DNA from: Colwellia sp. RE-S-Sl-9
GTDB lineage: Bacteria > Pseudomonadota > Gammaproteobacteria > Enterobacterales > Alteromonadaceae
DNA length: 64,000 nt
NCBI GenBank assembly: GCA_048296855.1
Contig: CP182631.1
Reading direction: 5' to 3' (one strand)
How positions within the stretch are numbered: the first letter of the stretch is position 1; each line of letters opens with the position of its first letter. A program made the position numbers and the translations under genes. The notes under the pieces were generated by a model. That model saw only the letters and a program-made list of their open reading frames with translations, did not search any database and was not told where the DNA came from. Positions 2,884 through 56,870 of this stretch are shown here, piece by piece.

Positions 2884-4164
2884 TTACTGCCTAGGCTCAA
2901 CCATAATAACTCTAAAGTCATTCACATTGGTATGTGTTGGGCCTGTAATAATTAAATCATTCAGCGCTTCAAAAAAATGAAAACTATCATTCTTCATTAA
3001 ATAATACTCAAGCGACAACCCTTTCTCTTGTGCTCGTTCTAACGTAGCTTCATCAATAAAAGCACCAGCAACATCTTTATTTCCGTCAACGCCGTCTGTA
3101 TCACACGCTAACGCTGATATTCCTTTAGCACCCTTTAATTCTTTAGCTAACGCAAGCATGTATTGTTGATTAGGTCCGCCATCCCCAGATTCTTTATCTA
3201 AAGTAACCGTAAGCTCTCCACCTGAAAAAAACAATGTGGGTTCATTCAACGTTTGCGCTTCTAAAGCGATTTTTGCATGTTCTGCGGCGACTTTATTCGC
3301 ATCACCCACTTCATCATAATTAAGAACTTTAATTTTCCATTTCGACAAATCAACACTCGCAATCGCTTTATCAATAGACTGTCGAGCATTAGCCATAATA
3401 GTAAAATTTTTAATAAGCTCTGGAGATATTGACTGATCAGAAATGCTTTCTTTAGCGGGTTCAGCAAGCAGCGCCTTTTCGACTGAAGCAATAGGCTCCC
3501 AATGGTATTTCCTTAATACACTAAGAGCTTGTTCACCTGTAGTAGAATCTTTGACCGTAGGACCCGAAGCTATAGTTGCAGGATCATCGCCTACTACGTC
3601 AGAAATAATTAAGGTATAAAACTCGCCTTTAATGGCTTGAGCTAGCTTGCCACCTTTTATTTGAGACAGTTGTTTGCGCACACAATTAATTTCGTCAATA
3701 GAAGCTCCAGAGCCTAATAAAAACTTATTTAATTGCATTTTTTCTGCAAAACTAACACCTTCAATAGGTAATGAAAGTAAAGCAGAACCTCCGCCTGAAA
3801 TTAAAAAAACGACTGGTACATCTTTAGGTACGCTCTGAGCTAAAGCTAAAATTTCTTTACCTGCGTTAATACTCCCTTCATCAGGAATAGGATGACCTGC
3901 CGTTAATATTTTAATACGACCAATACTTGAGTTATTGGTATAGCCATGGCGAGTAACAACCGTTCCATAACATTTTTCTCCAAAGAACTCGTGCATAGTA
4001 TTAGCCATATCCACAGCGGCTTTTCCTGCTCCTATTACACATAAACCGTTACTGGCATCTATATTTTCAAGATGTTTTGGCATACATACCGACGGTAGAC
4101 TTTCGTTTACTGCGATTTCAAATAAATTTTGTAAGAATTTTTTAGTTTTCATTGTATTACACAC
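2884..4164 (-). CDS. glycerate 2-kinase, MOFRL family (hydroxypyruvate reductase/glycerate kinase GckA/TtuD-like)
   Basis: 426 aa with the conserved MOFRL C-terminal block 'DTDGVDGNKDVAGAFID' and an N-terminal DUF4147-like region. The true start may be the second Met (4152). Confidence 0.8.
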   Translation of the reverse strand: MCNTMKTKKFLQNLFEIAVNESLPSVCMPKHLENIDASNGLCVIGAGKAAVDMANTMHEFFGEKCYGTVVTRHGYTNNSSIGRIKILTAGHPIPDEGSINAGKEILALAQSVPKDVPVVFLISGGGSALLSLPIEGVSFAEKMQLNKFLLGSGASIDEINCVRKQLSQIKGGKLAQAIKGEFYTLIISDVVGDDPATIASGPTVKDSTTGEQALSVLRKYHWEPIASVEKALLAEPAKESISDQSISPELIKNFTIMANARQSIDKAIASVDLSKWKIKVLNYDEVGDANKVAAEHAKIALEAQTLNEPTLFFSGGELTVTLDKESGDGGPNQQYMLALAKELKGAKGISALACDTDGVDGNKDVAGAFIDEATLERAQEKGLSLEYYLMKNDSFHFFEALNDLIITGPTHTNVNDFRVIMVEPRQ

Positions 4165-15255: not shown

Positions 15256-16962
15256 ATGACGATAAAGACTCGCCTAATGGCAATACTTATTGCCATTATC
15301 ATCTTACTACTTGGCGGCATTGCTGCGGAAAACATAGCAAGCCACAAAAATACAATTCAAACAAAAAGTAGTACAACTCGTTACCTTTCCTATCTACTTG
15401 CCGATGAGTTTCGTCAAACATCAATGGATCTTACGAGACTTTGCCGTACTTTCGTCGCAACCGGTAACAATGAATACTGGGAAGCTTACTGGGATATTGT
15501 TAAATGGCGAAATGGTGATATTGAAAGACCTGAATATGTGGATGTAAATTTATACCGAGGAAAAAAGAAAAAACAAAGTGACATCATGAAAGAATTAAAC
15601 TTTTCTCGTGCTGAATTCGCCTTACTAGACGAAGCAAGTAAAAATTCCAATGGATTAATAGAAACAGAAACACAAGCAATGGAATCAATAAAGGCAGGTA
15701 AAATTGTAACAGGCCCATTTAAAGCTTTACCTAACGAAACTGTTAACGATTTTGCATTACGTATCGTTTTTAACAAAGCCTATCATCAAGAAGTAAATAA
15801 TATAATGGCACCTGTCGATAAGTTTTTCTCTAATCTTGATCATCGAACTTCAACTGAATTGAAAAATTCTCAACAGGAAGCTGCTTTTTGGCTAAATATC
15901 AGCTTAAGCATTCGAATACTTATCGCGCTTCTAGTGATCGCATTAATGTTTTTTATCATTCAAACATTATTCAAGCCTCTAAAACACGCTACTTCTGCTA
16001 TGTTAAATATTGGCGAAGGTGATGGTGATTTAAGTAAACGTTTAGATGAAAGTGGTAAAGATGAACTATCTTCTTTGGCTCGTGGTTTCAATTTATTCGC
16101 TAACCATATTCAACAAGTTGTAATAGAACTACGCGACGCTATTAATGATATTTCAGCATCTTCCTCTCAATTAAGTTCTACGGTAACTCAAACTGACCAA
16201 GCAATTTCAGAGCAAAAAAATGGTATCGAAAAATTATTAAAATCTCTAGAAGACATATTACCTGCCGTTCAAGAAATTGCGACAAATGCCTCTCAAGGTG
16301 TTGAGTTAGCAAAAGAATCCAATCACGCTGCAGCAGAAGGATTAAAAGTTGTTGATCAGGCTATCAATAATATTAACTTGTTAGATACCGATATAGAGAA
16401 TGCCTCCGATGTAATAGACACATTAGCAACCGACACAGATAACATTGGCTCGGTATTAGATGTTATACGAGGCATTGCAGACCAAACTAATTTATTGGCA
16501 TTAAACGCCGCGATTGAAGCGGCAAGAGCTGGTGAACAAGGCCGAGGATTTGCCGTTGTCGCTGATGAAGTTCGTACCTTAGCCCAAAGAACCCAAGACT
16601 CTACATCTGAAATTCAATCAATGATTGAAAAGCTACAGGTAGGCGCTAAACAAGCCGTTGAAGTGATGTTAGAAAGTAAAAACCGCACCGCAGCCTGCGT
16701 CAGTAATACAAGAGATACTGGCGATTCACTAGGAAAAATAACAGAGTCTGTCGCATCTATAATGCATATCAATACGCAAATAGCTTCTGCTACTGAAAAG
16801 CAGAACAACACAATAGATGAAATAAAAAGTAATGTAGACAATATTAACCAACATATTGAACAAACAGCTCAAGGCTCAAGAGAAACCGCAAATAATAGTC
16901 AATATACGAGTCAATTATCTGGAAAAATCAAAATACTCGTTGATCAATTTAAAACGTCATAA
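15256..16962 (+). CDS. methyl-accepting chemotaxis protein
   Basis: 568 aa with an N-terminal TM helix, periplasmic sensor domain, second TM helix, HAMP domain and a highly conserved MCP signalling domain ([34 protein letters not shown]). Confidence 0.9.
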
Positions 16963-16983
16963 GCTACAAAACTTAAGCTTTGT

Positions 16984-17016
16984 CCATATCACTTCGAACT
17001 GTTTGAAGTGATATGG
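16984..17016 (+). terminator. hairpin downstream of the MCP gene
   Basis: 12-bp perfect stem CCATATCACTTC / GAAGTGATATGG with a 9-nt loop. No clear U-run. Confidence 0.4.
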
Positions 17017-17229
17017 AGTATCAATAAAGATTGAATCACCTAAAGCAACTTATAAAAATATCTCCACCCTATAATATTCAACGAAAATCAAAAAAACTTC
17101 CTTTCAAAAGTGGCAAAAATTTCAAATGTAACTAAGACTTAGAGTAATACGCATATCAATCACGAAGTGCTTAACAAAAAATTAAAAACAATGAAGTAAT
17201 AGCAGCTAAATTAAGGTCTGCAGATCTAT

Positions 17230-20115
17230 TTGATACAAAATAAAACTGCCAACTACAACGTACATGAACTTATTCCCCTAAAGATAAGTTTATTAGCAAA
17301 TAGCTATAACTCCTTCACGGTAGAATTAGAATTAGGAATGAAAAAGGTTAGTTATTTGAAATCACGCCAACAGTCTATTAAAAGCAACATTCAAAGCGTG
17401 GTGTTAAGAGCATTAATGCTCTGTTTACTATTAGTTTTTATTGCCGTTTTAACTGTTGAGTACCTCAATACAGACACCATCTTTCGCCAAAACATTAAAA
17501 ACATATCATCTTTAGTCGCCAAGTATAGCGCTCCTACTTTGATCTTTGATGATGAACAAGAAGCAAACAATACTTTAAAAATTTTAGAAATAGACGATAG
17601 AATAATAAAAGCTCAAATCAATAAAAAAAATGGACAAACATTAGCTGAAAAAACTTTTTTACCTAAAAAAAACTTACGTAGTGCCTATGTTGTAAACGTA
17701 GATATTATAGAAGACGAAGTAAAATTAGGCGTACTAACATTGTGGGTTGACTTATCTGCTCAGCAATTCAATCTCATCAAAATATTTTTTATTTTACTTT
17801 TATTAAGCTTATTAAGTTTATTTATTGCGTTTATTCTTAGTAAACAACTCCCCTCACCAATTACACTCGCTATTTCAAGTGTTGTTAATATTTTTAAAGA
17901 AATCCGAAAAACACAAAATTTCGGTCGACGAGTTGAAAGTTCCAATATATCGGAAATGAATACCATTATTGATGGTTTAAATGCCATGTTAGAACAACTT
18001 AATAGTAGAGATTATCAACTCCAACGACATAAAGAAAAATTAGAAATAGCGTTAAAAAGTAGTGGCGAAGGTATTTGGGAATTTGATCCTAGATTAAAAA
18101 TAATCACCAGCGATCACACAACTCAACTCATTATAAAAAATACTGAAAACAACACCTTTACCGATAAAAAATCAACACATTACGAACACCATTACATTAC
18201 ATGGTTAAAGCGTTTTTATCGAGAAGATAGAGCAGCCATTTACAACAATATTAAAAATTTACTGCAAGGAAGTATCAGCGGATTTAAAATTGAATGTCGA
18301 ATAAAGCTTACCGAAAACTCTTTTCATTGGGTTAATATTCATGGCTTATTATCTTATGATCAAACAGGTTATCCCGCGAGTATAATAGGTACTATTGTTG
18401 ATGTGCACGAACAAAGAAAAGCACTACAAGAAAGCCAACTACTCTCTGCTATATTTCAACAAACGCAAGATCCTGTTGTTGTTATAAATTCAAATTTTAT
18501 TATTCAAGCAGCTAATAATGCTTTTAGTAAACACACACATATTAAACCTCAAGGACAACACCTAGAGCAATTTTTCGATAAAAAATATCACGACAGATAC
18601 TTTTTTGATCGTATCAAAAATTCAATATTAAAAAAGCAGACTTGGGAAGGAGAGCTGCGCTTTCTAACAGCTAACAAGGAAGAACGACCTATATGGCTAT
18701 CTCTTGTTCCTGTCAGTAAAGGTGAAAATATCAATTATTTAGGAACTTTTTCAAAATTAACTCAACGTCAAAGTATAGAAGATGAATTACGCTATTTAGC
18801 CCACTACGACAGTTTAACCGACCTGCCTAATAGGCGTATGTTTAACGACCGCCTAAATCAATGTTTAAAAGCATCTAAACGAAACAAATATAATTTCGCC
18901 ATTGTTTTTATCGACGTAGATGACTTTAAAAATATTAATGATACTTTAGGTCATAAAGTGGGTGACGAAATATTAATTGCTTTCGCTAAAGCCTTAAAAA
19001 TTCCCTTACGAAATGTTGATACCGTGTCACGCCTAGGTGGAGACGAGTTCGTTGTTTTATTAGAACAATGCGGACTTAGAGAGCAAGTTGCAGCGGTAAC
19101 CGAACGACTATTAGATGAAATATCAAAACCACTTTTACTGCAAGGCCATAAACTTAACCCTACATCAAGTATTGGTGTCGCATACTATCCTGACGACGGA
19201 CGTACTGCTGAAGAGCTCATGATAAATGCTGATTTAGCCATGTATAGAGCTAAAAAAGATAAAAAGTTACCTTATCGTTTTTTCAAAAAAGAATGGGGAA
19301 AAATTGCAGAAAGACAATCAAAGCTCCGTTACGCCCTTGCAACAGCCATTGAGCACAATGAGCTATTTATTACATTACAGCCCAAGTTTGATCTGCAAAC
19401 ACTACAAATAGAATCTGCAGAAGCACTGCTGCGTTGGGTACACCCTGAATATGGTTTTATATCACCAGTAGAATTTATTCCGTTAGCTGAAGATAGTGGT
19501 TTTATTGAAGAGATTGGTAACTGGGTCTTACATCAAGTAGCGGCTATTTTAGAACGTTGGAAAGAAACAAATCTATCTCACATCAGTATTGCTGTTAATG
19601 TTTCAGCAGTTCAGTTTGATGAAGACAAGCTCCTTAAAGAATTAAAAATATTAATAAATTGTTATGATTTCCCTATCGACAAGTTAGAACTAGAATTAAC
19701 TGAATCTATCTTATTAAAATCTGAATCTAAAGCCACTGAAATACTTAATCAGATTAAAAATATGGGTTTTGTTATATCTATTGATGATTTTGGAACAGGT
19801 TATTCATCCCTTCAATATTTAAGTAAGTTCCCTGTGCAAGCACTGAAAATAGATCGTAGCTTTATAATTAATTTTGAAAATGATCCAAGAAATAACACCA
19901 TAGTTAAAGCCATTATAGCTATGGCTCAAGGGCTTGAAATGAAAGTAATCGCTGAAGGCGTAGAAAACCTGAACCAATTGCAGCTGTTGGCCAAAATGGG
20001 AGCCAATATCGGCCAAGGCTATTGGTGTTCAGAGCCTATAAAAATAGTTAAATTTGAAGTATTTGTTCAAGAATGGAGTATAAAAATACTCGATAAAAAT
20101 TTAAAGACTAATTAA
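17230..20115 (+). CDS. membrane sensor diguanylate cyclase/phosphodiesterase (PAS-PAS-GGDEF-EAL)
   Basis: GGDEF motif 'RLGGDEFVVLL' and EAL signatures 'EALLRW' and 'DDFGTGYSSL'. An N-terminal periplasmic loop sits between two TM helices. The start codon is uncertain (TTG at 17230 or ATG at 17338). Confidence 0.8.
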   Translation: MIQNKTANYNVHELIPLKISLLANSYNSFTVELELGMKKVSYLKSRQQSIKSNIQSVVLRALMLCLLLVFIAVLTVEYLNTDTIFRQNIKNISSLVAKYSAPTLIFDDEQEANNTLKILEIDDRIIKAQINKKNGQTLAEKTFLPKKNLRSAYVVNVDIIEDEVKLGVLTLWVDLSAQQFNLIKIFFILLLLSLLSLFIAFILSKQLPSPITLAISSVVNIFKEIRKTQNFGRRVESSNISEMNTIIDGLNAMLEQLNSRDYQLQRHKEKLEIALKSSGEGIWEFDPRLKIITSDHTTQLIIKNTENNTFTDKKSTHYEHHYITWLKRFYREDRAAIYNNIKNLLQGSISGFKIECRIKLTENSFHWVNIHGLLSYDQTGYPASIIGTIVDVHEQRKALQESQLLSAIFQQTQDPVVVINSNFIIQAANNAFSKHTHIKPQGQHLEQFFDKKYHDRYFFDRIKNSILKKQTWEGELRFLTANKEERPIWLSLVPVSKGENINYLGTFSKLTQRQSIEDELRYLAHYDSLTDLPNRRMFNDRLNQCLKASKRNKYNFAIVFIDVDDFKNINDTLGHKVGDEILIAFAKALKIPLRNVDTVSRLGGDEFVVLLEQCGLREQVAAVTERLLDEISKPLLLQGHKLNPTSSIGVAYYPDDGRTAEELMINADLAMYRAKKDKKLPYRFFKKEWGKIAERQSKLRYALATAIEHNELFITLQPKFDLQTLQIESAEALLRWVHPEYGFISPVEFIPLAEDSGFIEEIGNWVLHQVAAILERWKETNLSHISIAVNVSAVQFDEDKLLKELKILINCYDFPIDKLELELTESILLKSESKATEILNQIKNMGFVISIDDFGTGYSSLQYLSKFPVQALKIDRSFIINFENDPRNNTIVKAIIAMAQGLEMKVIAEGVENLNQLQLLAKMGANIGQGYWCSEPIKIVKFEVFVQEWSIKILDKNLKTN

Positions 20116-22873: not shown

Positions 22874-23069
22874 GCTTAATTAAGGTCTGTTGACCTTTCA
22901 TGTTTAAATTTTGTTCGGATTAAAGGCTTGTTAGTCGCGGCGCAAGGGAACTAGCATAATTGTTCTATGTAAATTCCTTGCAACAATGAACAAGAAGCAT
23001 TTAAACGACCTCATAGGACAGAAAAATCAACAAACCTTAATTTCCTTCAAGATAAAAGTAAAACGATAA

Positions 23070-23107
23070 AAAACCTACTTTAGCAGAGTTAAAGTAGGTT
23101 TTTTAAT
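23070..23107 (+). terminator. intrinsic terminator
   Basis: AACCTACTTTA-gcagagt-TAAAGTAGGTT followed by TTTTTT. Confidence 0.65.
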
Positions 23108-24417: not shown

Positions 24418-25044
24418 TTAACTCGGCTCAACAACAGACATTAAAGCAAGGTTACGTCCTTCAAGATCTTCGAAAAACACCATCCACTCTTCAGATCCAT
24501 CATCATGTTTATGGATCATATGGGGTGCATTAACAAATTTAACTCCTAGCGTGGTTAATGTTTCGTATGAAAAATGTATATCAGAAACCCTGAGGTACAA
24601 AATTGATTCAACGGTATTAACGTCTTCACTCTCAGACAGCATTAATCGAACGCCCCCTAAATCAAAAAAAGCTAATTTTCCAAAGGTATACAAATGAGCT
24701 AGCCCTAAAACATCACGATACCAAGCCTCTGATTTTTTAATGTTTTTAACGGTTCTGGCCGTTTGCCCTAAAGCTAAAATACTATGTTGGTTATTCATAT
24801 TTTCTCCTTGGATTATCAGTAAACTCTCTTTAGGTACTCCCACCCAACACATTAAAGCTTTACGGTTTTTTAAACCTAATTTAGCTATTGCATTTGCAAC
24901 GTGATATTTCACTCCGTCTAAACTAATCTTTTCAAGATCAGCAATTTGCTGATTGGTTAAGCCATGGCGAACAGCATTAGCTGTTCGCCATTCAGCAAGA
25001 GTGAGAATATCTTTATGTGGCGGTCGACCGCGTAATTTTTTCAT
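24418..25044 (-). CDS. LuxR-type HTH domain fused to a VOC (glyoxalase/bleomycin-resistance/dioxygenase) domain
   Basis: The N-terminal residues ~10-70 match the LuxR/FixJ HTH (LTNQQIADLEKISLDGVKYHVANAIAKLGLKNRKAL). The C-terminal ~120 aa resemble a VOC beta-alpha-beta-beta-beta module. Confidence 0.6.
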   Translation of the reverse strand: MKKLRGRPPHKDILTLAEWRTANAVRHGLTNQQIADLEKISLDGVKYHVANAIAKLGLKNRKALMCWVGVPKESLLIIQGENMNNQHSILALGQTARTVKNIKKSEAWYRDVLGLAHLYTFGKLAFFDLGGVRLMLSESEDVNTVESILYLRVSDIHFSYETLTTLGVKFVNAPHMIHKHDDGSEEWMVFFEDLEGRNLALMSVVEPS

Positions 25045-25751: not shown

Positions 25752-28700
25752 TTAATCAAAAATGGCTCCTCCTGTATTATGACTCTCTCTACTTGTTGCC
25801 AACTCTTTAGTAACTTTTTGAACCGTCATAAAATTAAGAGTTTTTAATGTCTCTATTATTTCTAAATCAACATTTTTATTGCTGTTAAGTACAGATAATA
25901 ACGGCGTTATAAACGATTCCATATGCTGCGTAAATAAAGACAAGGTTTGTGTTAATTCAGCGTTATCTGGCTTTTCAACATTTACTTGTAACTTTAAACT
26001 AGACAGTGTTTCGTTCAATGTGTCTAAACTACCAGACTGAGACTGTTGCAGTACTTGGCTAATTTGATTCAATCCCTTTTGCAATAATGATATTTGGCTC
26101 GCAATAGCAGCCATTGGATTGTCGTTATTACCTAAGTTTTGATGACGAACAAAATCATCTTTTATGATTTTCCAGCGCTCTGCTTGCTCACTAGTTTGGT
26201 TATTACGAAGTTCAGCTAATTTAAGTAGATTTTCTTCAGCACCTATTGTTAATGTTTGAGCTTCACCTCGGTAATGATCTGCAATCAGTTGTTCAACTTC
26301 TTCGTCAGTCATCACAGGTACAATTTTTTCTACCATTTTATTCATGTTTCGGTAGCTACCTTGTAACTTAAAGGGTGGCTCGGTTCTGTATTTGTCGTCT
26401 TGGGCAGCAGATGCAATATATTGTTCATTCGCTTTTAAAACGGTTTCTTGAACCTTGCGAATACGCTTAATAACCGCAACAATTTCATTCACTTCGGCTT
26501 GTGAATAACTATGTTTAAGATCCGTTGCAGCAACCGGTTCTCCATCTGCCATTTTAACTAAATTATACAAGTCATCCATATCGCGTGTAGCAAGTGGCGC
26601 AATGTAAGAGTTACTGGTTAAGCTATTTTCAATAAAACTTAAAGAAAACTCATGTTCACGACCACTTAGCGTATCACCCAAATTATAAATATCAGCACGG
26701 TTAGCTAACATGTCTGGAATACTAAATGCTTCGCCTGACTCGGTATACGGATTACCCGCCATAACAACTGCAAACTTTTTACCACGCATGTCGTAGGTTT
26801 TACTTTCGCCATTCCACACACCATCTACCCGTCTTGAACCATCACAAAGAGAAATAAATTTTTGTAAAAACTCAGGATTAGTATGTTGAATATCATCAAG
26901 GTACAACATAACGTTGTTACCCATTTCAAAGGCTAAGTTGATTTTTTCTACTTCATTCTTTGCCGTTGAGTTATTTGCCTGCGCGGGATCAAGCGATAAT
27001 TGGTCGTGTCCAATAGACGGACAGTTAATTTTAACAAAGGTCATACCCAGCTTACTGGCTACGTATTCGATTAATGTTGTTTTACCGTAACCCGGAGGAG
27101 AAATAAGTAATAATAACCCCATTAAATCTGAACGTTTGTTATTACCTGCAGCACCAATTTGTTTAGCTAAGTTAGTACCTATTATTGGAAAATACACATC
27201 GTTAATCAGTTTATTTCGTACAAAAGAAGATAACGCTCTAGGTTTGAACTCTTCAAGTTGTAGTCGTTTACGCTGTTTTTCTAATACCTGTTGTTTGGTT
27301 TGATGAAACTGCTTAAATGCAGGTACATGTTCATACGTAAATTTACGTAACTTTGTGATAAATTCTTGATAGTTAATTTTTAATTTTCGATCATTAATCT
27401 GTTTATGCTGACCCAATAAGCCTTCTACAATACAATAGGTTTTAGCCGCAGAAGTATAAAACTCACTGTGCTGCTCTAACGTCATCAACATAGAAGCTTC
27501 AATTAATACATCTAAATGAATGTCTAATTTTTGATGATGAGCAAAAGCTTGTAACCACGCTAAATGGAGTTGATATTTTTGTTCTAAAGTTGAACAGCCT
27601 GATAGCGCGCTTTCAATTTGCTGTTCTAAGCTCTTATGTTTAAGTTGTGATTTTAGTTGTTTAACTAGATCTACACTTTCTTCTTTTATAACAAACTTTT
27701 GTTCAGCTAAAGCAAGCTCTTGAATAAGATACGTTGCTGATAAGACCGTGTCGCCGTTTAACCAAGGTTGCTCTTTAATATAGGTAGTTAATACACTTGA
27801 CAATTCATCCGTTAGCTGTTGCCTAAGCTGATTATCGCCGAAGGTTTCTTCCATTAAGTGTAAGTTATGACAACGCTGTACTAAGTCTTTACGTTGGTTA
27901 TCTTCTAATTTTGTTGAAAAGAAAAACACAGCGAGTTTTCTCTCTAACGCGGGGTAAGCTAATAGGCCTATAGATTCTCGTAACGATAATAGCTGTGTTA
28001 AAATTAAAGCGGCATCGGCGTCATGTACACCTTTATCATAACCTTCTTGATAGCGTGGCTCTGCCGCTTTTCTAATAAACTCTACTAATTGATTATTTTT
28101 TACCGCGTCTTTTAAGTGATCAATTTGAGTTTTACCAGACAATTCAGCTTCAAATAATAAGCTAGCGGCTAAGTATTCACCTCGGTATACATCACCACAT
28201 TCAGAAATAAGTTCTTGCTGCCATAAATATTCAGTACCCGCAAATAGTTCAGCGTCTAGGTTTTCAAAATACTCACTGCCACTAATGTGTAATACCATTG
28301 CCTTGTCACGTGGCAATAAGGTTAGTTCTAGTTTTTGCTTATTAACCGAGAACTGATGTTCGCCTATTTTAACTAAGCTACCGTCGGCTGAATAAATATC
28401 GGTTTTATCTCTAAGAGCTCTTATGCCTTGTTCTTTAGCATTTTTTAGCTGAGCATCAATGTCATCAGCTCTAACATTGTCATCAAGTTCTCTTAATTGC
28501 TCTATCAGTTGTCTTAACTTAGACACCATAGGGTCGCCAGCAAAATAACTATTGAGCTTGTCTTGATCATTAAAACCTTGGCTACGACGAATAACACCTT
28601 CGATAATACGCTGTGCCGCTGTCATTAAATTAAGACAACGACGCTGCTGAGAATCCATAAGCTGTTGTTTATGTTGCTCGAAGTTATCGTAAATTTCGTC

Positions 28701-30944
28701 TCGTTTAGCGAGGATCTCAGTATAAAACTCCTCATAATCGCTAAATTGACTTTCTAAGTCTTCAAGCTGAATAAGTATTTGAGAGAGTTGTTGATCGCAA
28801 GATTGCGGTGTATCACTCGCATTTAAGCCACTGGTAACACTTTGGCTTAGTAGTTTAAATCTGGCACCAAATTCGGCTCTAGCCTCTTCACTGCCTACAC
28901 TTTTTGCGGCTAAATCTGCGTTCGCTTTAACACGATTAATTTGACTAAATACACCTGATATATCTTCGAGTATACGTGTGCGCTGCCTGCTGTCTTCAAT
29001 ATCTAAAGACAGCATGGTGCGATTAAGTAATTCTAAACCTTGAATAAGCTCTTCAATGGCTAAACGTATAGGTTTTAATGCGGTGATTGACTCACTATCT
29101 GTAATCGCTGCTTCTAATTCTGCGATGGTAGTTTGGTAAGGGGTAAGTGCATTATCTTGCTGTAAAAAATCAGCCGTTGCTTGGCTAAGTCCTTTAGTGA
29201 GTTCGTCTAAAGTAACTTCCATGGTGTTAATTTCATCTACGTCAACATAACGTAATTCTTTATGAGAAATTAACTCGCCTTTAAATTGTGCTAACTCAGA
29301 TAAATTATCAACAAATTGCTTAGCGTTATTAAAGCGATTTAATTGGAGATTTTTGGTTAACTCAGTAAGCTTATTTCGAGCTTCTGACATAACGGCATCA
29401 GAGCTTGCTTTAATGCTAACGACTTTTTCAAACTCATCTAATACGAGTTCTGAAGTCGTAACAACTTGTTTGATCAGATCATTTAGAGTCGATAAGCTTG
29501 TATCATTCAACCAATGATATTTATCAAAAAGCTGCTTAGATTCTTTAACTAAATCGTTAAAATGATGCTCGCTAGGCGCTTCAATAGAAATTAATTTAAC
29601 AACGCTATATAAATCAGACACGCCTCTAACAAGTTCAGGATTACCTATTTTGCCAAAAAAACTTGTGTCGGTAGGTTGGTTGCTCGCATATTCTTCGGTA
29701 CAAAATGGGGTTTGCCATATTTGCATAGCATGCACACGCGAAGGTTCAGATTCTGCACTAAAAACTACAGCCCTTCCATTATCGTACAAGCTTTGACCGT
29801 GACCATAAATAGGGTTTTGTAATGTTCTCGTGATCAGGTTATAGCCAAATAAAGCATACTGACCTGCATTAGGTTCATAAAATATATAAAGAAAATCTTC
29901 ACCGTTGGGTGATTTAACTACACGGTGCAGTTGAAGATCTTCAGCATTGTCTTCAAAACTCTTATGTTCTCCATTTTGCAGATAGTATCCACCAGGAAAA
30001 ATAATACCGTGATCTTCAGGTAATTGAATACACGCATGTGCGATTGCGTCTTGGCGTAATACAGTTTTGGTTTTGCAGTTAAAAATTAAATGTCGGGTTT
30101 GCTCTTCACGGTAGGGCTTTATTTTTAATAAAATAAGTTCGCCCACTTTAGCGTAGCGAATATCCGCATCGTCTAAAGATTGGTGTTCATCATCAACAGG
30201 CTCTGAATATATACCTTGCCCTGCTTCGGTATTATTTTCTACTTTAAGGGTAAGTGACCCGCCCATGGTTTCAACAAAAAGCATATCAAATAAATTAAAG
30301 TGCGGATGCTTACCTTGCTCTTGTTGTTCTCGTGATACTTTATGCCATTCAAAATCAAAATTTTCTGGCTGTTTTATATCTCTTTCACCACGGTTATCAA
30401 TGTAAGTGACTTTATAATCTGGGTCGATCCCCCAGCGAAAAACACGTATGTCATCAATACGCTCACCAATTTGAAATATTGCAAAAACTTTGCTGCCTTG
30501 ACGGTAAACATGAGATAAAAAGGTTTTTTTATAGTAGGTATATAGCTCATCAAAATCGCGAACAAATTCAGGATCATCAAGAAAGCTACCTTGTATTGGC
30601 AAGTCTACAATTTCAATCTCACCATTGTTATCTTGAAGTTGATGCAAACTAAATACATCAGAAATGGTGATATTACGTTGTAAACCTAAAAAAACGTTAT
30701 ACCCAAAAAGTAAGGTGTCTCCAATAGCCGCTATGTCTCTCGCAACACAATTATGCTCGGTTCTCACTCTTACACGAGCATCAACGTTCATATCAGTTGA
30801 GCCAAATGTTGAAATACGTTCATCATTTAACTGTTTTATTTGTGTATTAAGTTCACTACCTAAGGCGGATAGTCGGCGTTGTATTAGCTCGTATGAGCCA
30901 CCTTCTGCAACGGCTTGATTGGTGACACTTTCCTTATTTGTCAT
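25752..30944 (-). CDS. giant (1730-aa) protein with a C-terminal AAA+ ATPase module (AAA_5/MoxR-McrB-like); the N-terminal ~1200 aa have no recognisable domain
   Basis: Walker A 'LLLISPPGYGKTTLIEY', Walker B 'VMLYLDDIQH' and a sensor-like 'VVMAGNP' block. The frame is uninterrupted. It starts 65 bp downstream of the flotillin gene on the same strand. Confidence 0.75.
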   Translation of the reverse strand: MTNKESVTNQAVAEGGSYELIQRRLSALGSELNTQIKQLNDERISTFGSTDMNVDARVRVRTEHNCVARDIAAIGDTLLFGYNVFLGLQRNITISDVFSLHQLQDNNGEIEIVDLPIQGSFLDDPEFVRDFDELYTYYKKTFLSHVYRQGSKVFAIFQIGERIDDIRVFRWGIDPDYKVTYIDNRGERDIKQPENFDFEWHKVSREQQEQGKHPHFNLFDMLFVETMGGSLTLKVENNTEAGQGIYSEPVDDEHQSLDDADIRYAKVGELILLKIKPYREEQTRHLIFNCKTKTVLRQDAIAHACIQLPEDHGIIFPGGYYLQNGEHKSFEDNAEDLQLHRVVKSPNGEDFLYIFYEPNAGQYALFGYNLITRTLQNPIYGHGQSLYDNGRAVVFSAESEPSRVHAMQIWQTPFCTEEYASNQPTDTSFFGKIGNPELVRGVSDLYSVVKLISIEAPSEHHFNDLVKESKQLFDKYHWLNDTSLSTLNDLIKQVVTTSELVLDEFEKVVSIKASSDAVMSEARNKLTELTKNLQLNRFNNAKQFVDNLSELAQFKGELISHKELRYVDVDEINTMEVTLDELTKGLSQATADFLQQDNALTPYQTTIAELEAAITDSESITALKPIRLAIEELIQGLELLNRTMLSLDIEDSRQRTRILEDISGVFSQINRVKANADLAAKSVGSEEARAEFGARFKLLSQSVTSGLNASDTPQSCDQQLSQILIQLEDLESQFSDYEEFYTEILAKRDEIYDNFEQHKQQLMDSQQRRCLNLMTAAQRIIEGVIRRSQGFNDQDKLNSYFAGDPMVSKLRQLIEQLRELDDNVRADDIDAQLKNAKEQGIRALRDKTDIYSADGSLVKIGEHQFSVNKQKLELTLLPRDKAMVLHISGSEYFENLDAELFAGTEYLWQQELISECGDVYRGEYLAASLLFEAELSGKTQIDHLKDAVKNNQLVEFIRKAAEPRYQEGYDKGVHDADAALILTQLLSLRESIGLLAYPALERKLAVFFFSTKLEDNQRKDLVQRCHNLHLMEETFGDNQLRQQLTDELSSVLTTYIKEQPWLNGDTVLSATYLIQELALAEQKFVIKEESVDLVKQLKSQLKHKSLEQQIESALSGCSTLEQKYQLHLAWLQAFAHHQKLDIHLDVLIEASMLMTLEQHSEFYTSAAKTYCIVEGLLGQHKQINDRKLKINYQEFITKLRKFTYEHVPAFKQFHQTKQQVLEKQRKRLQLEEFKPRALSSFVRNKLINDVYFPIIGTNLAKQIGAAGNNKRSDLMGLLLLISPPGYGKTTLIEYVASKLGMTFVKINCPSIGHDQLSLDPAQANNSTAKNEVEKINLAFEMGNNVMLYLDDIQHTNPEFLQKFISLCDGSRRVDGVWNGESKTYDMRGKKFAVVMAGNPYTESGEAFSIPDMLANRADIYNLGDTLSGREHEFSLSFIENSLTSNSYIAPLATRDMDDLYNLVKMADGEPVAATDLKHSYSQAEVNEIVAVIKRIRKVQETVLKANEQYIASAAQDDKYRTEPPFKLQGSYRNMNKMVEKIVPVMTDEEVEQLIADHYRGEAQTLTIGAEENLLKLAELRNNQTSEQAERWKIIKDDFVRHQNLGNNDNPMAAIASQISLLQKGLNQISQVLQQSQSGSLDTLNETLSSLKLQVNVEKPDNAELTQTLSLFTQHMESFITPLLSVLNSNKNVDLEIIETLKTLNFMTVQKVTKELATSRESHNTGGAIFD

Positions 30945-31009: not shown

Positions 31010-32992
31010 TTACTTAACGTCTGAAGTATTTTGGCTACCTAAATTTAATAGCGCCGCCAAAGCACCTTTTTGTGTGTCATCAGCATTATTTAATGTTGAT
31101 AACAGTTTAGACATATTGAAATTTTTCATGGTTTCACTTGTTTGTGCAGCACCTGATAACACACCACTCAAATCGTCCATAATATTACGATCACCATTTA
31201 AATGATCTTTAAGTAAGGTTTTTACTGTATCGCTTTCATTGACTAAACCATCGATAGATTTACCAACAGTAATAGACTTCATAAATTGATGTAGGAACTC
31301 ACCGTCTCCTCCCATAATATTTATGTTAGCTTCGCTTAATGCTGTCGCTAAAACGCCTGCTTGTTTCTCAGCTAAATCTACGCTGTTGTCTAGTCTAGCT
31401 AAGGTAAGTTCTCGCTCTTGATTTAAGCGTAAACCAAAAGTTTCAAACTCACGTGCTTGTTCAGACATTGCGTTAAGCACTTCTTGCTTCTCACGTAAGC
31501 CAGCTGCTTCAGCAAATGCTTTTTCTTGAATACCTTTCGCCTCGGCGGTTAGTTTTAACTCAAGCGCTTTAGCTTCAGCTTCACCTTGTCTTTCATGTGC
31601 ATCGGCTTGTGCTAGCGTTATTTGTGCTTCTGCTAACCCTTGTGATGCAGCTTCAGCTTGGTGCCCTTCTGCTAATATTTTTTTAGACTCAGACTGCTTG
31701 CTGGCAGTTTTTAATTCAGCTTCAGCAATAGTTTGCATTTTTCTTGCGGTATGCTCTGCGGCTTGCTCTTGTGCTTTAGCTGATTCAATATCTTTCACTA
31801 AAGCTTCTTCGGCTTCACCTTTCGCTTTAATCACTTTTTCATCTTTCTGGCGATTAGCTTCAGACACTACACGTAAATCTTTAATACGCTCTTCTTCTTC
31901 TGCAACGCTTTTATCTACCATAATTCGTTCTCTTTGAACTTCGGCGATGTTTTTGCGCTCAACCTCTAACGCTTTTTCTTTATCAATGCGTAGCGTTTCC
32001 ACTTCTTTTTCACGGTCAATTGACTCAATTTGACGTGCTCGTGTTACTTTTTCTTCTTCGATTGCAACGGCTCTGAAGCGATTTTGTTCTGCAATATCAG
32101 CCTCACGTTGTTTATTTTCTTCGGCAACGGCAATTATTTGTTCAGTGCCGATTCTTGCTTGTTCAGACTTACAACGCTCTTCTTCAACAATTTTTGCAGT
32201 TTCGGCTTCTTCGCGCGCTTTTACTGAAGCTATTTCTCTAGTTTGTTTAGCTTGCGAATCAGCTAATTGTCGTTCTAACTCTAAGCTTTTTTCTTCTGCT
32301 TCAATATTTTGACGTTTAATACGAATTTCTTCTTGGCGTTTTAAGTCATTCGTTTGTACACTTTGTTGAGCCGTAAGCTCAGTTATACGTCGAATACCTT
32401 CTGAATCCATTATATTATTAGGGTCTAAATCACTAATTGATGTTTGCTCTAAAAAGTCGATTGCAACATCTTCAAGTACGTAACCAGATAAGTCTTGACC
32501 GATCACTTCTTTAATCTTGTCTCTAAACCTATCGCGCTGGGTAAATAGTTCGGTAAAGTTAAGTTGTTTACCTACGGTTTTAAGGGCTTCTGAAAACTTA
32601 GCTTCGAATAATTCTTGTAATGTTTCAGGGTAAGATGAACGTTCACAACCTACCTGTTTCGCAACTCGTAAAATGTCTTCTTTGGTTTCGTTTACTCGAA
32701 TATAAAACGTAATAATAATATCGGCGCGAATGTTGTCTTGACAGATCAAACCTGAGCGCCCTTTACGTTCAAGCATCATACGCTTGGTTGAAATATCCAT
32801 AATTTCTTTTTTATGAATAATAGGAATAACCAAGCCGCCTGTGGTGCTTATTTCAGGCTCTGCTCGCAATTTGTTAATAATTAACGCCTGCCCTTGTTCT
32901 ACTTTGTTATAAAACTTTGCGACCATGATTAACAATGAAAAGACGAAAAGAGCGCCAATTCCGATAGCTAAATAAAGTGGTTCCATTACCAT
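31010..32992 (-). CDS. yqiK: flotillin-like SPFH/band-7 protein (YqiK family) with a long E/A/K-rich coiled coil
   Basis: 660 aa with an N-terminal TM helix, an SPFH domain and an extended coiled coil (AEAEAKA.. repeats). Confidence 0.8.
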   Translation of the reverse strand: MVMEPLYLAIGIGALFVFSLLIMVAKFYNKVEQGQALIINKLRAEPEISTTGGLVIPIIHKKEIMDISTKRMMLERKGRSGLICQDNIRADIIITFYIRVNETKEDILRVAKQVGCERSSYPETLQELFEAKFSEALKTVGKQLNFTELFTQRDRFRDKIKEVIGQDLSGYVLEDVAIDFLEQTSISDLDPNNIMDSEGIRRITELTAQQSVQTNDLKRQEEIRIKRQNIEAEEKSLELERQLADSQAKQTREIASVKAREEAETAKIVEEERCKSEQARIGTEQIIAVAEENKQREADIAEQNRFRAVAIEEEKVTRARQIESIDREKEVETLRIDKEKALEVERKNIAEVQRERIMVDKSVAEEEERIKDLRVVSEANRQKDEKVIKAKGEAEEALVKDIESAKAQEQAAEHTARKMQTIAEAELKTASKQSESKKILAEGHQAEAASQGLAEAQITLAQADAHERQGEAEAKALELKLTAEAKGIQEKAFAEAAGLREKQEVLNAMSEQAREFETFGLRLNQERELTLARLDNSVDLAEKQAGVLATALSEANINIMGGDGEFLHQFMKSITVGKSIDGLVNESDTVKTLLKDHLNGDRNIMDDLSGVLSGAAQTSETMKNFNMSKLLSTLNNADDTQKGALAALLNLGSQNTSDVK

Positions 32993-33067: not shown

Positions 33068-33700
33068 TTAGTGAGAGTAAGGTGCAACAATATAAGTGTG
33101 GCTGTCTTTTAGGTACTCAATTACGAGTACTTCATCCCCCTTTTTTAGCGTGTGCTGCGGATCACAGCGTACATCAAAGAGTATTTCGGCCCCCTCGTTA
33201 AATAAACGTGCTTGGCCAAAGCTGTCGCTTACGGTACTTGTAGCTATAATGGCATTTTTACCAACTAGATGATGACTTGTCGTAGTTTCAACGCTTGTAA
33301 ACATGCCCTTTATAGGACGAAGAATGACCGCAGCAATGGGAAGTGATATTGCAAAAACAATAACATCAGTTATAGCCCCCATCACGTAATATAACCAACC
33401 GTCAGGTAACCAAGTAAGTAGGTATAATTGAAGATAAAAACTGATCAACCAACAAATAAGAACAATAATGCTGATCACAAGTGTAAAAGGCACGCCAGTT
33501 AAACCAAAAGTAAGCATTAAGCCGGTGAGTCCACCAATAGAAATTTCAGGATCCAGATCTATATCAAGTTCAGCATCACCTGAAAAGCCTAAATCGACAA
33601 GTCCCAACATACCTACAAGCCAATACACGACCACAACACCTAGTAGGGTTGAATATATAACAGTGGGGAATTGTGAAGCGACTTGAAGCAGTTGTTCCAT
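33068..33700 (-). CDS. yqiJ: NfeD-like inner-membrane protein (YqiJ family)
   Basis: 210 aa with several TM helices and a C-terminal OB-fold-like soluble segment. It lies immediately upstream of the flotillin gene, as in the E. coli yqiJK operon. Confidence 0.65.
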   Translation of the reverse strand: MEQLLQVASQFPTVIYSTLLGVVVVYWLVGMLGLVDLGFSGDAELDIDLDPEISIGGLTGLMLTFGLTGVPFTLVISIIVLICWLISFYLQLYLLTWLPDGWLYYVMGAITDVIVFAISLPIAAVILRPIKGMFTSVETTTSHHLVGKNAIIATSTVSDSFGQARLFNEGAEILFDVRCDPQHTLKKGDEVLVIEYLKDSHTYIVAPYSH

Positions 33701-33772
33701 ATTTCATCCTTAAAATAAATAACATAACGCTTATATGTTTTGTTATTTTGAAATTTGATTTTGTGTAGATTA

Positions 33773-33811
33773 ATCATACCCATTTGACATAATATGTCAA
33801 ATGGGTATGAT
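33773..33811. promoter_or_regulatory. perfect 39-bp palindrome encoding two interleaved mirror-image sigma70 promoters (TTGACA-N16-TATGAT on each strand)
   Basis: Plus strand: -35 TTGACA at 33784-33789 and -10 TATGAT at 33806-33811. Minus strand: -35 at 33800-33795 and -10 at 33778-33773. The only non-palindromic position is the centre base, 33792. Confidence 0.6.
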
Positions 33812-33980
33812 GACTAACATCTTTTATTGGGATAAATTATCATATAGCTTAGTTAAAATCATTTAATAAAATATTCATAGGTAAATTATTTGATTCATTT
33901 ATCTAGTGGCATGTATTAACCAATAATTATATGATTAGTCTAAACATTTCAACATAAAATAACGTTAATAAGGATTTTAA

Positions 33981-34406
33981 ATGAGAGGCGCAGGTGGTAC
34001 TTCAGGTGGATTAGGACACTTTTTTATTGGCCTAATTATGATGTGTGGTGGCTTTTATATGTTATTAAATGCAATCACTGTAACGTCAAGTTTTGGCATG
34101 GGCATGCGGTTATATGGCTTTTCAGCGGGTGGTGGAAGCTTTAATGTAACGAGCGGTATGATCATGATCCCTTTTATTTTTGGTGTGGGTTTAATTTTTT
34201 ATAACAGTAAAAATATTTTAGGTTGGGTGTTATCTGTAGGCTCGATAACCGCGTTAATTTTTGGTGTTATCTCTTCTATTCGTTTTTCTTTTAGAACCAT
34301 GAGCTCATTTGATCTTATCGTTATATTGGTTTTAGCTGTCGGCGGCTTAGGTTTGTTTTTACGTTCTTTAAAAACATTAGATCAAAAATATCCTGATCAA
34401 AAATAA
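33981..34406 (+). CDS. small integral membrane protein, hypothetical
   Basis: 141 aa, Gly-rich N-terminus, 3-4 TM helices. Divergent from yqiJ. Confidence 0.5.
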   Translation: MRGAGGTSGGLGHFFIGLIMMCGGFYMLLNAITVTSSFGMGMRLYGFSAGGGSFNVTSGMIMIPFIFGVGLIFYNSKNILGWVLSVGSITALIFGVISSIRFSFRTMSSFDLIVILVLAVGGLGLFLRSLKTLDQKYPDQK

Positions 34407-53283: not shown

Positions 53284-53796
53284 TTATTGCAAATCAGGTA
53301 AAATGCTTTGGGTTGTAATTAAAATATTATTTGAATGAGTGCTTTCACGCTTTTGTTTATGCATGTCGTCTTGGCGTTGTGAAACCATTTTAACGTTTCT
53401 TTCCTCAACGAGCTCTGAAAGCGAAATATTCTGTAAAAAATCTTCTATGCGTACGCTTAAATCTTCCCATAATGAATGGGTTAAACATTGGTTACCACCT
53501 TGGCAGTTACCTTGTCCGGAACATTTAGTTGCATTAATGCTTTCATCAACCGCAAAAATAACGTCTGCTACAGCAATTTGAGCTGAACATCTACCTAAGC
53601 GATAACCACCACCAGGACCTCGCACGCTATTAACCAAACCATGTTTACGTAAACGCGAGAATAGCTGTTCTAAATACGACAATGAAATACCTTGTCGTTC
53701 AGATATGTCAGCTAATGATACAGGACCTGAAATGGCATGAATGGCAACATCAAGCATTGCGGTAACCGCATAACGCCCTTTTGAAGTCAGTTTCAT
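53284..53796 (-). CDS. iscR: Rrf2-family Fe-S transcriptional regulator IscR
   Basis: Start ATG at 53796 ([11 protein letters not shown]...) is preceded by AGGAGA. The three Cys of the IscR cluster ligand region are present. The track ORF extends 18 codons further upstream. Confidence 0.9.
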
Positions 53797-53854
53797 TATG
53801 TTCTCCTGTATTTTTGCTGCGCATTTTACATAACCATGTAAAATAATCAACTAT

Positions 53855-53879: not shown

Positions 53880-53909
53880 TTTACGCGAGATAAAAATAGA
53901 GTCAACATA

Positions 53910-53934
53910 AATACCTGAGTATTTTACTCAAGTA
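53910..53934 (-). promoter_or_regulatory. putative IscR type-1 box (distal)
   Basis: Near-palindromic ATACCTGAGTATTTTACTCAAGTAT (half-sites TGAGT/ACTCA) upstream of iscR. Confidence 0.4.
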
Positions 53935-53980
53935 TTTATGTTTAGCATAATGGCTTACCCCAAATTAGGGTTAACTAATA

Positions 53981-56793: not shown

Positions 56794-56834
56794 TTTACCT
56801 TATTGATTAAAGAACGAGTAAAAAGACACAAAAA

Positions 56835-56870
56835 AAGGCTAAAGAAGATATTCTTCTTTAGCCTTTTTTC
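56835..56870. terminator. bidirectional intrinsic terminator (suhB / TPR gene)
   Basis: 13-bp perfect stem AAGGCTAAAGAAG / CTTCTTTAGCCTT with a 5-nt loop. Flanked by an A-run and a T-run. Confidence 0.75.

Follow-up and report, generated by a model that had tools for sequence, protein, structure and literature searches.

The 64,000-nt stretch of contig CP182631.1 of Colwellia sp. RE-S-Sl-9 analyzed here (the window) contains a perfect 39-bp palindrome between an operon that begins with a yqiJ-like membrane-protein gene and a divergently transcribed gene for a small membrane protein. We interpret this element as the promoter-operator of the yqiJ-like operon, in which a short operator palindrome was probably extended and homogenised by template switching, thereby creating a mirror-image promoter that shares the operator (a reading to which we assign a probability of roughly 0.6). 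The elements concerned are the following:

33773-33811: perfect 39-bp palindrome, ATCATACCCATTTGACATA-A-TATGTCAAATGGGTATGAT, with 19-nt arms that are 100% complementary and an A as centre base at 33792
33773-33800, minus strand: putative promoter P1 of the yqiJ-like operon, with -35 TTGACA at 33800-33795, a 16-bp spacer and -10 TATGAT at 33778-33773
33784-33811, plus strand: putative mirror promoter P1', with -35 TTGACA at 33784-33789, a 16-bp spacer and -10 TATGAT at 33806-33811
33785-33799, both strands: 7-1-7 core TGACATA-W-TATGTCA (TGACATAWTATGTCA), a candidate operator overlapping both -35 hexamers

Among the inverted repeats of the window the palindrome is the longest. About 1e-6 perfect palindromes with arms of at least 19 nt are expected per 64 kb from base composition, which bears out the view of an earlier inspection of the letters alone (the sequence-only reading) that a chance origin is very unlikely. 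The string written out in that reading comprised the inner 37 nt, and the element spans 39 nt by its coordinates because the flanking A/T also pair, giving 19+1+19 with all arm positions complementary. A consensus promoter scan recovered the two mirror-image, near-consensus promoters described there (TTGACA-16-TATGAT on each strand, 11/12 matches each), and their coordinates place the -35 of each within the spacer of the other. The palindrome is single-copy in the window, even at <=3 mismatches, and its 12-nt half-site is not enriched there (8 matches at <=2 mismatches versus 8.3 expected). The predicted one-strand DNA hairpin of the 39-mer has a free energy of -18.4 kcal/mol (z = -7.3 versus shuffles).

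Orthologous upstream regions were obtained from 18 genome loci, 51 metagenome contigs and 4 further contigs (labelled L001 etc.). Exact look-up of the YqiJ-like and 141-amino-acid (aa) proteins of the window in public assemblies gave no match, and homologs were used instead; according to these, the window belongs to the Colwelliaceae, close to Colwellia, Litorilituus and Thalassotalea. Conservation counts are based on 57 distinct Colwelliaceae sequences around the site, the core count was made earlier on 72 sources (56 distinct 61-mers), and the detailed intergenic alignment comprised 20 loci. Trees were built from YqiJ alone (210 aa) or together with the 660-aa protein encoded by the second gene of the operon, and were poorly resolved. 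An assembly artefact was rejected as the source of the palindromes, as the same palindromes were recovered from independent assemblies (pairs L019/L020, L033/L034, L002/L025, L003/L029 and L013/L055), they lie inside contigs, and long and short forms share homologous sequence beyond the arms.

The minus-strand promoter previously proposed for the yqiJ operon has strong backing from conservation. Its -35 TTGACA is present in 57/57 distinct orthologous sequences and its -10 TATNNT in 55/57, mostly as TATGGT or TATAGT, with a spacer of 16 bp throughout and without indels, while no such constraint is visible at spacer offsets 8-12 (counted from the centre) or in the left flank. P1 thus combines near-consensus elements with 16-bp spacing and is kept in orthologs while its neighbours drift, as expected for a sigma70-type promoter. 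From this directly observed conservation pattern we infer that P1 is the promoter of the yqiJ-like operon, with a predicted start near 33766 (minus strand), ~65 nt ahead of the ATG at 33700. A conserved ribosome-binding site, TTTAAGGATRAA, is located downstream of P1.

The TGACATAWTATGTCA core is essentially invariant and was found once per locus in 66/72 sources at <=2 mismatches, always upstream of yqiJ. It consists of five bases of the P1 -35 and ten spacer bases. Its TATGTCA half is not needed by P1 and, in species with a short palindrome, is present without a usable -10 on the other strand. Because the core is invariant although this half is dispensable for P1 and lacks an opposite -10 in the short forms, it is most likely the operator of a homodimeric regulator that would compete with sigma for the -35. 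What is conserved across the orthologs is the sequence of a short inverted repeat, not mere symmetry. The sequence-only reading had regarded the entire palindrome as an ideal dimeric-repressor operator; its invariant 7-1-7 centre is indeed a good candidate, but only the central 15-17 bp are operator-like, and the outer arms vary freely. To our knowledge, none of the LexA, Fur/Zur, FNR/CRP, NrdR, ArgR, RutR, NikR, NsrR/IscR and CopY/BlaI boxes fits both the half-site and the spacing of the core. Thalassomonas-like outgroups contain different palindromes at the equivalent promoter position (GGCTGACATAATATCAGCC in L016 at ~3880-3900; CAGACATAATGTCAG in L066, upstream of yqiJ), which suggests that the operator, and perhaps also its regulator, may have diverged in these lineages. 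No palindrome was identified at the equivalent position in L068/L069.

Pfam searches of small open reading frames (ORFs) nearby in the window identified a GerE-glyoxalase fusion, an AraC-type protein and IscR. None of the three emerged as the regulator of the core, since the cluster in L072 and L073 is not accompanied by any of them. The fusion protein (24418-25044, minus strand), which joins a LuxR/GerE-type helix-turn-helix to a glyoxalase/bleomycin-resistance domain, is unusual in its own right; it is encoded two genes past the giant ATPase gene of the yqiJ-like operon and is not conserved there in L072, and L073 contains a glyoxalase-domain gene cut by the locus end. A 182-aa Zn-ribbon protein (PF13453) encoded in most relatives was rejected as an essential regulator because the core is retained without it in the window, L019/L020, L007 and L010.

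Long palindromes are present in 22/57 sequences, including the window. Their perfect arms measure 29, 28, 28, 27, 26, 24 (seven sequences), 23 (three), 21 and 19 nt (three), and three further sequences of this class contain exactly one internal mismatch each (T:G, A:A and A:C). Three other sequences have arms of intermediate length (15, 14 and 11 nt), and ~32 contain the core only. Partly decayed palindromes were identified in L008, L021, L023, L028 and L046; in L008, L021 and L046 the inner and/or outer complementarity is kept and the mirrored -10 is lost. L008, the ND2E strain of C. psychrerythraea, represents an intermediate form, and L004, the isolate Colwellia hornerae ACAM 607, a short one. 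Long and short states are interspersed on the YqiJ trees, irrespective of whether the 660-aa protein is included.

The mirror promoter is confined to the long class (mean match 10.6/12 versus 7.5/12 in the others). The claim of a plus-strand promoter for the small membrane-protein gene therefore holds in part: the sequence is real and faces this gene, but it is absent in most of the 35 non-long sequences (~60% of relatives), and the gene has its own, closer promoter-like block. We regard the putative plus-strand promoter as an add-on or by-product of recent, lineage-specific origin. P1' is predicted to be active, since its -35, spacer and -10 (plus the discriminator in longer arms) are identical to those of P1; its start would lie near 33818 (plus strand), ~163 nt before the 141-aa gene, which would give a transcript leader of ~163 nt. 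Two polymerases at P1 and P1' would be mutually exclusive, because the predicted starts are only ~52 bp apart.

Concerted evolution of the two arms of the palindrome was observed directly and is restricted to Watson-Crick symmetry. The long arms vary at offsets 8-12, within the -10 (TATRGT, TATGAT, TATGCT, TATGTT) and beyond, yet stay exact reverse complements. In the closest relative, L019/L020 (YqiJ 93% identical), ACCTGTTTGACATA.TATGTCAAACAGGT is found where the window has ACCCATTTGACATA.TATGTCAAATGGGT. The difference consists of CA>TG in one arm and TG>CA in the other, that is, two adjacent, exactly complementary changes per arm, which account for 4/21 substitutions in 280 aligned intergenic nt. 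The otherwise identical L056, L013 and L057 form a series from CC/GG through TC/GG, with a T:G mismatch, to TA/TA. Across the 22 long sequences, 96.4% of cells are paired, compared to 84% in shuffles and 27-48% in slid controls, and two-sided compensatory change occurred in 9/24 pairs (62 cells), including CG<>GC and UA<>AU swaps. G:U accounts for 2/21 non-Watson-Crick cells, no more than chance, and this lack of enrichment among the exceptions points to a constraint on DNA complementarity and not on RNA pairing. Arm ends differ even between close relatives. The centre base (33792 in the window) is A in 15 and T in 42 of the 57 sequences (yqiJ orientation), never G or C, and flips between A and T several times on the tree, as would be expected if copying runs across the palindrome centre.

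A copying process or a selected nucleic-acid structure is required to account for these patterns, because promoter function and base-specific protein binding cannot explain perfect complementarity at freely varying positions. Template switching in replication is favoured, since the variable arm ends, the expansion from a shorter seed, the often adjacent double compensations, the complement flips at the centre and the small number of single-mismatch intermediates (3/22) all fit, as do the exact complementarity despite divergence and the Watson-Crick-only symmetry. In E. coli, quasi-palindromes are mutation hotspots via template switching, which is an established process (PMC7202029). A single template-switching event can create or repair a perfect stem (PMC8794818), and inverted-repeat expansion by this mechanism has been described at yeast promoter and factor-binding sites (PMC13100816).

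Under the proposed mechanism, the sigma70-type P1 on the minus strand would drive yqiJ, the 660-aa gene and the giant ATPase gene. A dimeric regulator encoded elsewhere would bind the core centred at 33792, with half-site centres about one helical turn apart, and the dimer would block sigma region 4. In the window lineage and ~40% of related Colwelliaceae, the short palindrome would have been extended outwards to arms of 19-29 nt, so that the DNA upstream of the -35 became the exact reverse complement of the spacer and -10 and, in some cases, also of the first bases to be transcribed. Such an extension would necessarily make an identical P1' facing the divergent membrane-protein operon, and as the central operator covers both -35 hexamers, a single dimer could shut both promoters. 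Intrastrand template switching at the quasi-palindrome in replication would copy a new mutation to the other arm or revert it, and selection on P1 would filter the surviving variants.

Several points weigh against this interpretation. All six isolate genomes contain the short or an intermediate form, and the long form was found only in metagenome-derived assemblies and the window. In the window, L072 and L073, the cluster has no conserved regulator gene beside it; the ~0.5 Mb of window and locus sequence contained no additional copy of the core at any locus, and querying the literature with the motif as a text string retrieved nothing but unrelated plant papers. The number of independent gains and losses is uncertain, as the tree is weak and based on a 210-aa protein. 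The mismatches of the long class are confined to the promoter-neutral offsets 10, 11, 20 and 21 and spare the mirrored -10, a weak hint (~P = 0.05, 7 mismatches) that the mirror copy is itself under some selection, in which case a purely neutral drive may be incomplete. Finally, we infer template switching as the homogenising process from the pattern only, and identical covariation would be expected if a hairpin or cruciform were under selection.

An unlikely alternative, put forward in the sequence-only reading, is a toggle in which selection keeps mutually exclusive mirror promoters for alternate or balanced expression of both operons. Consistent with this model, identical elements are present on both strands, each -35 is located in the spacer of the other promoter, starts ~52 bp apart would result in overlapping polymerase footprints, and in the long class the mirrored -35 and -10 are free of mismatches. 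At bidirectional promoters of E. coli, opposed polymerases have been shown to compete if one direction is under strong activation, but basal activity of these promoters is usually too low for competition (PMC12825309). Furthermore, the mirror promoter is missing in most relatives with the same two operons, selection on promoter elements cannot give perfect complementarity in the spacer and beyond the -10, and the divergent operon keeps a conserved promoter of its own, which is represented in the window by the following block:

33906-33935, plus strand: proximal promoter-like block of the divergent operon, GTGGCA-18-TATGAT in the window and GTGACA-18-TATGAT in most relatives

This block, which most long and short loci retain, is separated from the centre of the palindrome by ~105 nt and precedes the divergent gene by ~50 nt. 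Given this conserved promoter, the small membrane-protein gene would not depend on the mirror promoter. The block has been lost without another good candidate in some long-class lineages (the L013/L056 group and L006), and some short-class lineages have also lost it. Its loss is not significantly associated with the mirror promoter (long class, ~13 intact and 5-6 degenerate; short class, 19 and 6). Decay of the proximal promoter was accordingly discarded as evidence for the mirror promoter, as the apparent link vanished without post-hoc choice of the ingroup. Just upstream of the -35 of the proximal promoter (~33850-33905), conserved hexamer repeats were identified, consisting of two direct AAATCA copies (AAATCAATTAAATCA in most relatives) and an inverted TGATTT, with the appearance of an activator site or UP-like element.

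Somewhat less probable still is a cruciform-based switch, in which the perfect palindrome would be kept because it extrudes under negative supercoiling between the divergent operons, folding both promoters into the arms as an off-switch that senses supercoiling or transcription. Its strictly Watson-Crick symmetry through functionally neutral positions, up to 29 nt per arm, its AT-rich centre (ATAWTAT) and single unpaired centre base, both of which favour extrusion, the stable single-strand hairpin described above and its location between divergent operons are all in line with this possibility. Cruciform-capable inverted repeats are described as enriched in E. coli promoter regions (PMC6060812). 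However, ~60% of relatives regulate the same operon without a long palindrome, the long form has repeatedly decayed (L008, L021, L023, L028 and L046 keep parts of it), and arm length is variable. Arms of 19 nt are also short if they are to extrude under physiological superhelicity, all the more so in cold-adapted organisms, where the process is slow. Selection and mutational drive are not separated by these data. That selection, and not copying bias alone, keeps the palindrome, as a protein-independent torsion-sensing feedback switch atop an ordinary operator that was gained and lost repeatedly within one family, is a doubtful proposition, marginally more so than the cruciform itself. An E. 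coli promoter under the control of cruciform extrusion was reportedly engineered by Horwitz and Loeb in 1988. Like that construct, the palindrome described here is perfect, has an AT-rich centre and spans promoter elements; unlike it, it is natural and chromosomal, with short arms (19 nt in the window), and extrusion is only a possibility here.

It is improbable that the whole 39-59 bp are contacted by a large or multimeric regulator which reads the outer arms and co-diversifies with its operator between strains. The variable symmetric offsets 9-12 between conserved blocks do resemble specificity positions, the outgroups L016 and L066 have a different palindrome at the same place, and the window contains another long operator-like palindrome, the putative IscR site at 53904-53942. 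However, these offsets differ among L013, L056 and L057 and between the window and L019, although each set is very closely related and the rest of the region is near-identical, which would imply implausibly fast protein co-evolution. Arm ends range from 19 to 29 nt, and most relatives contain only the 15-bp core.

An RNA hairpin has a slightly lower probability again. In this case, the palindrome would be transcribed from an upstream promoter and form a stem-loop in the 5' untranslated region of yqiJ, acting as a stabilising element or RNase III site. The stem would be a perfect duplex of 18-28 bp, and a -10-like block that might provide the upstream promoter is conserved in nearly all loci:

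33834-33844, minus strand: conserved block TATGNTAATTT (window: TATGATAATTT), ~33 nt upstream of the P1 -35 and nearly invariant in 20 loci (L001-L020)

The TATGNTAATTT block, which resembles a -10 (TGn + TAATTT, or TATGNT), is kept even where the divergent neighbour gene differs. It could represent a second upstream promoter, whose transcript would contain the palindrome, or a factor site. Against an RNA function, G:U pairs are not enriched and the internal mismatches (T:G, A:A and A:C) show no strand preference; an RNA stem has no need of an invariant TTGACA and TATNNT at a fixed distance of 16 bp, and the stem is absent in ~60% of relatives. Moreover, there is no U-tract after the stem and no Rfam family match: a known structured RNA was rejected, as the only Rfam match was to a plant microRNA precursor model (26 bits versus a gathering score of 100).

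A dispersed repeat resembling repetitive extragenic palindromic (REP) sequences or miniature inverted-repeat transposable elements (MITE), or a bidirectional terminator, would also be a perfect hairpin-forming intergenic sequence, but this explanation can practically be dismissed: the check for further copies, proposed genome-wide in the sequence-only reading and made here on the window and the related loci, found one copy in the 64-kb window and one in each related locus (~70), always at the orthologous position between divergent gene starts, and the AT-rich stem has no T-run and no gene end nearby and yielded no call in a terminator scan.

The predicted arrangement shares features with several known regulatory systems. 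The divergent bioA and bioBFCD promoters of E. coli share a 40-bp operator, bioO, which is bound by BirA. As in bioO, two overlapping divergent sigma70 promoters with a ~40-bp palindrome centred between them are present at the sequence level, and one dimeric repressor could silence both. In contrast to the imperfect repeat of bioO, the promoters described here are exact mirror images, only the central 15-17 bp are conserved, and the arrangement is found in part of the clade. The bidirectional promoters described by Warman and Grainger (PMC12825309; bioRxiv 10.1101/2020.01.31.928960) likewise allow RNA polymerase to bind either way through symmetry, with exclusion as the expected outcome. That class is defined by a shared -10 element and divergent starts 18 (or 10 or 23) bp apart (PMC12825309), whereas the axis of the palindrome lies between the -35s, the two -10 hexamers are offset by 33 bp, with 27 bp between them, and ~52 bp separate the predicted starts, so that it falls outside this definition. 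In addition, the symmetry is perfect over 39-59 bp here and approximate over ~10 bp there. Concerted arms, adjacent compensations, variable ends, centre flips and a seed of the dimeric-factor type in a promoter are shared with repeats attributed to template switching (PMC7202029, PMC8794818, PMC13100816). Here, however, a whole -35/spacer/-10 unit would have been duplicated in mirror image, ~57 natural variants of one locus are available, and the process is read from the sequence pattern. In the literature searched, we found no report of template switching in a bacterial promoter, nor of a whole promoter duplicated in mirror image.

The genes flanking the palindrome in the window are the following:

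33068-33700, minus strand: yqiJ/DUF1449-like membrane-protein gene (210 aa), first gene of the operon, with ribosome-binding site AAGGAT at 33711-33706
31010-32992, minus strand: gene for a 660-aa protein with transmembrane and coiled-coil regions, second gene of the yqiJ-like operon
25752-30944, minus strand: gene for a 1730-aa DUF3686/DUF7902/AAA ATPase (Pfam domains), third gene of the yqiJ-like operon
33981-34406, plus strand: 141-aa membrane-protein gene, divergent from the yqiJ-like operon

The order of the yqiJ-like, 660-aa and giant ATPase genes is also found in L019, L072 and L073. The yqiJ/DUF1449 family name was taken from the source names of homologs and not from Pfam, as the 660-aa, 210-aa and 141-aa proteins had no match in Pfam, NCBIfam or PDB sequence searches. 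For the 660-aa protein, this extends to Pfam at E = 10 and to PADLOC, and none of the five cluster proteins was assigned to a defence system by PADLOC. The label 'flotillin' given to the 660-aa protein in the sequence-only reading has no support from Pfam or PDB sequences; its architecture is nevertheless flotillin-like, as it comprises a transmembrane helix at the N-terminus, a stretch resembling SPFH and a long coiled coil rich in Glu, Ala and Lys. The protein may represent a very divergent flotillin that is always paired with YqiJ and the 1730-aa DUF3686 AAA ATPase.

Downstream of the 141-aa gene, the plus strand encodes an unrelated Fe-S/molybdopterin oxidoreductase. In most relatives, the divergent unit encodes the 182-aa protein with its N-terminal Zn ribbon (PF13453), followed by a 140-aa membrane protein. 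The Zn-ribbon gene (e.g. L001:3170-3718) is missing in the window (33812-33980), L019/L020, L007 and L010, and its deletion was clean, because the intergenic regulatory blocks are retained where the gene is absent.

Further palindromes were identified elsewhere in the window. A near-perfect palindrome with 18-nt arms and a 3-nt centre, AACATAAATACCTGAGTA-TTT-TACTCAAGTATTTATGTT, is located at 53904-53942, just upstream of an Rrf2-family gene (53284-53850, minus strand), which is followed by ORFs sized as iscS, iscU, iscA, hscB, hscA and fdx (domain assignment covers the Rrf2 ORF). This palindrome looks like an IscR autoregulatory operator. It shares with the element upstream of yqiJ a long, near-perfect palindrome in a promoter region as the putative operator of a dimeric regulator, and differs from it by an adjoining regulator gene (Rrf2), a 3-nt centre and the lack of a mirrored -35/-10. 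A 35-bp palindrome at 16983-17017, TCCATATCACTTCGAAC-T-GTTTGAAGTGATATGGA, with 17-nt arms that are 94% complementary and a 1-nt centre, lies between the end of an ORF at 15256-16962 and the start of an ORF at 17230-20115; as it lacks a T-run, it may be either an operator or an RNA stem. Two intergenic, perfect palindromes of the A-run/stem/T-run type (56831-56869, AAAAAAGGCTAAAGAAGA...TCTTCTTTAGCCTTTTTT; 23067-23105, TAAAAAACCTACTTTA...TAAAGTAGGTTTTTTA) look like bidirectional intrinsic terminators.

If the proposed reading of the palindrome upstream of yqiJ is correct, the Colwelliaceae provide a natural time series of ~57 variants in which an operator palindrome expands to mirror-copy an entire promoter. 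A new divergent promoter would then have been born in one or few mutational steps, already wired to an existing regulator, and the locus would represent a clear bacterial case of concerted evolution, at the level of DNA, between the two arms of a regulatory palindrome. This bears on the origin of bidirectional promoters, on the share of 'excess' perfect inverted repeats in promoters that is due to mutational drive versus function, and on compensatory change without RNA structure. Furthermore, the matched natural alleles of this family (core only, partly decayed, and perfect arms of 19-29 nt) could be used to study polymerase competition, shared repression and cruciform extrusion at one promoter.

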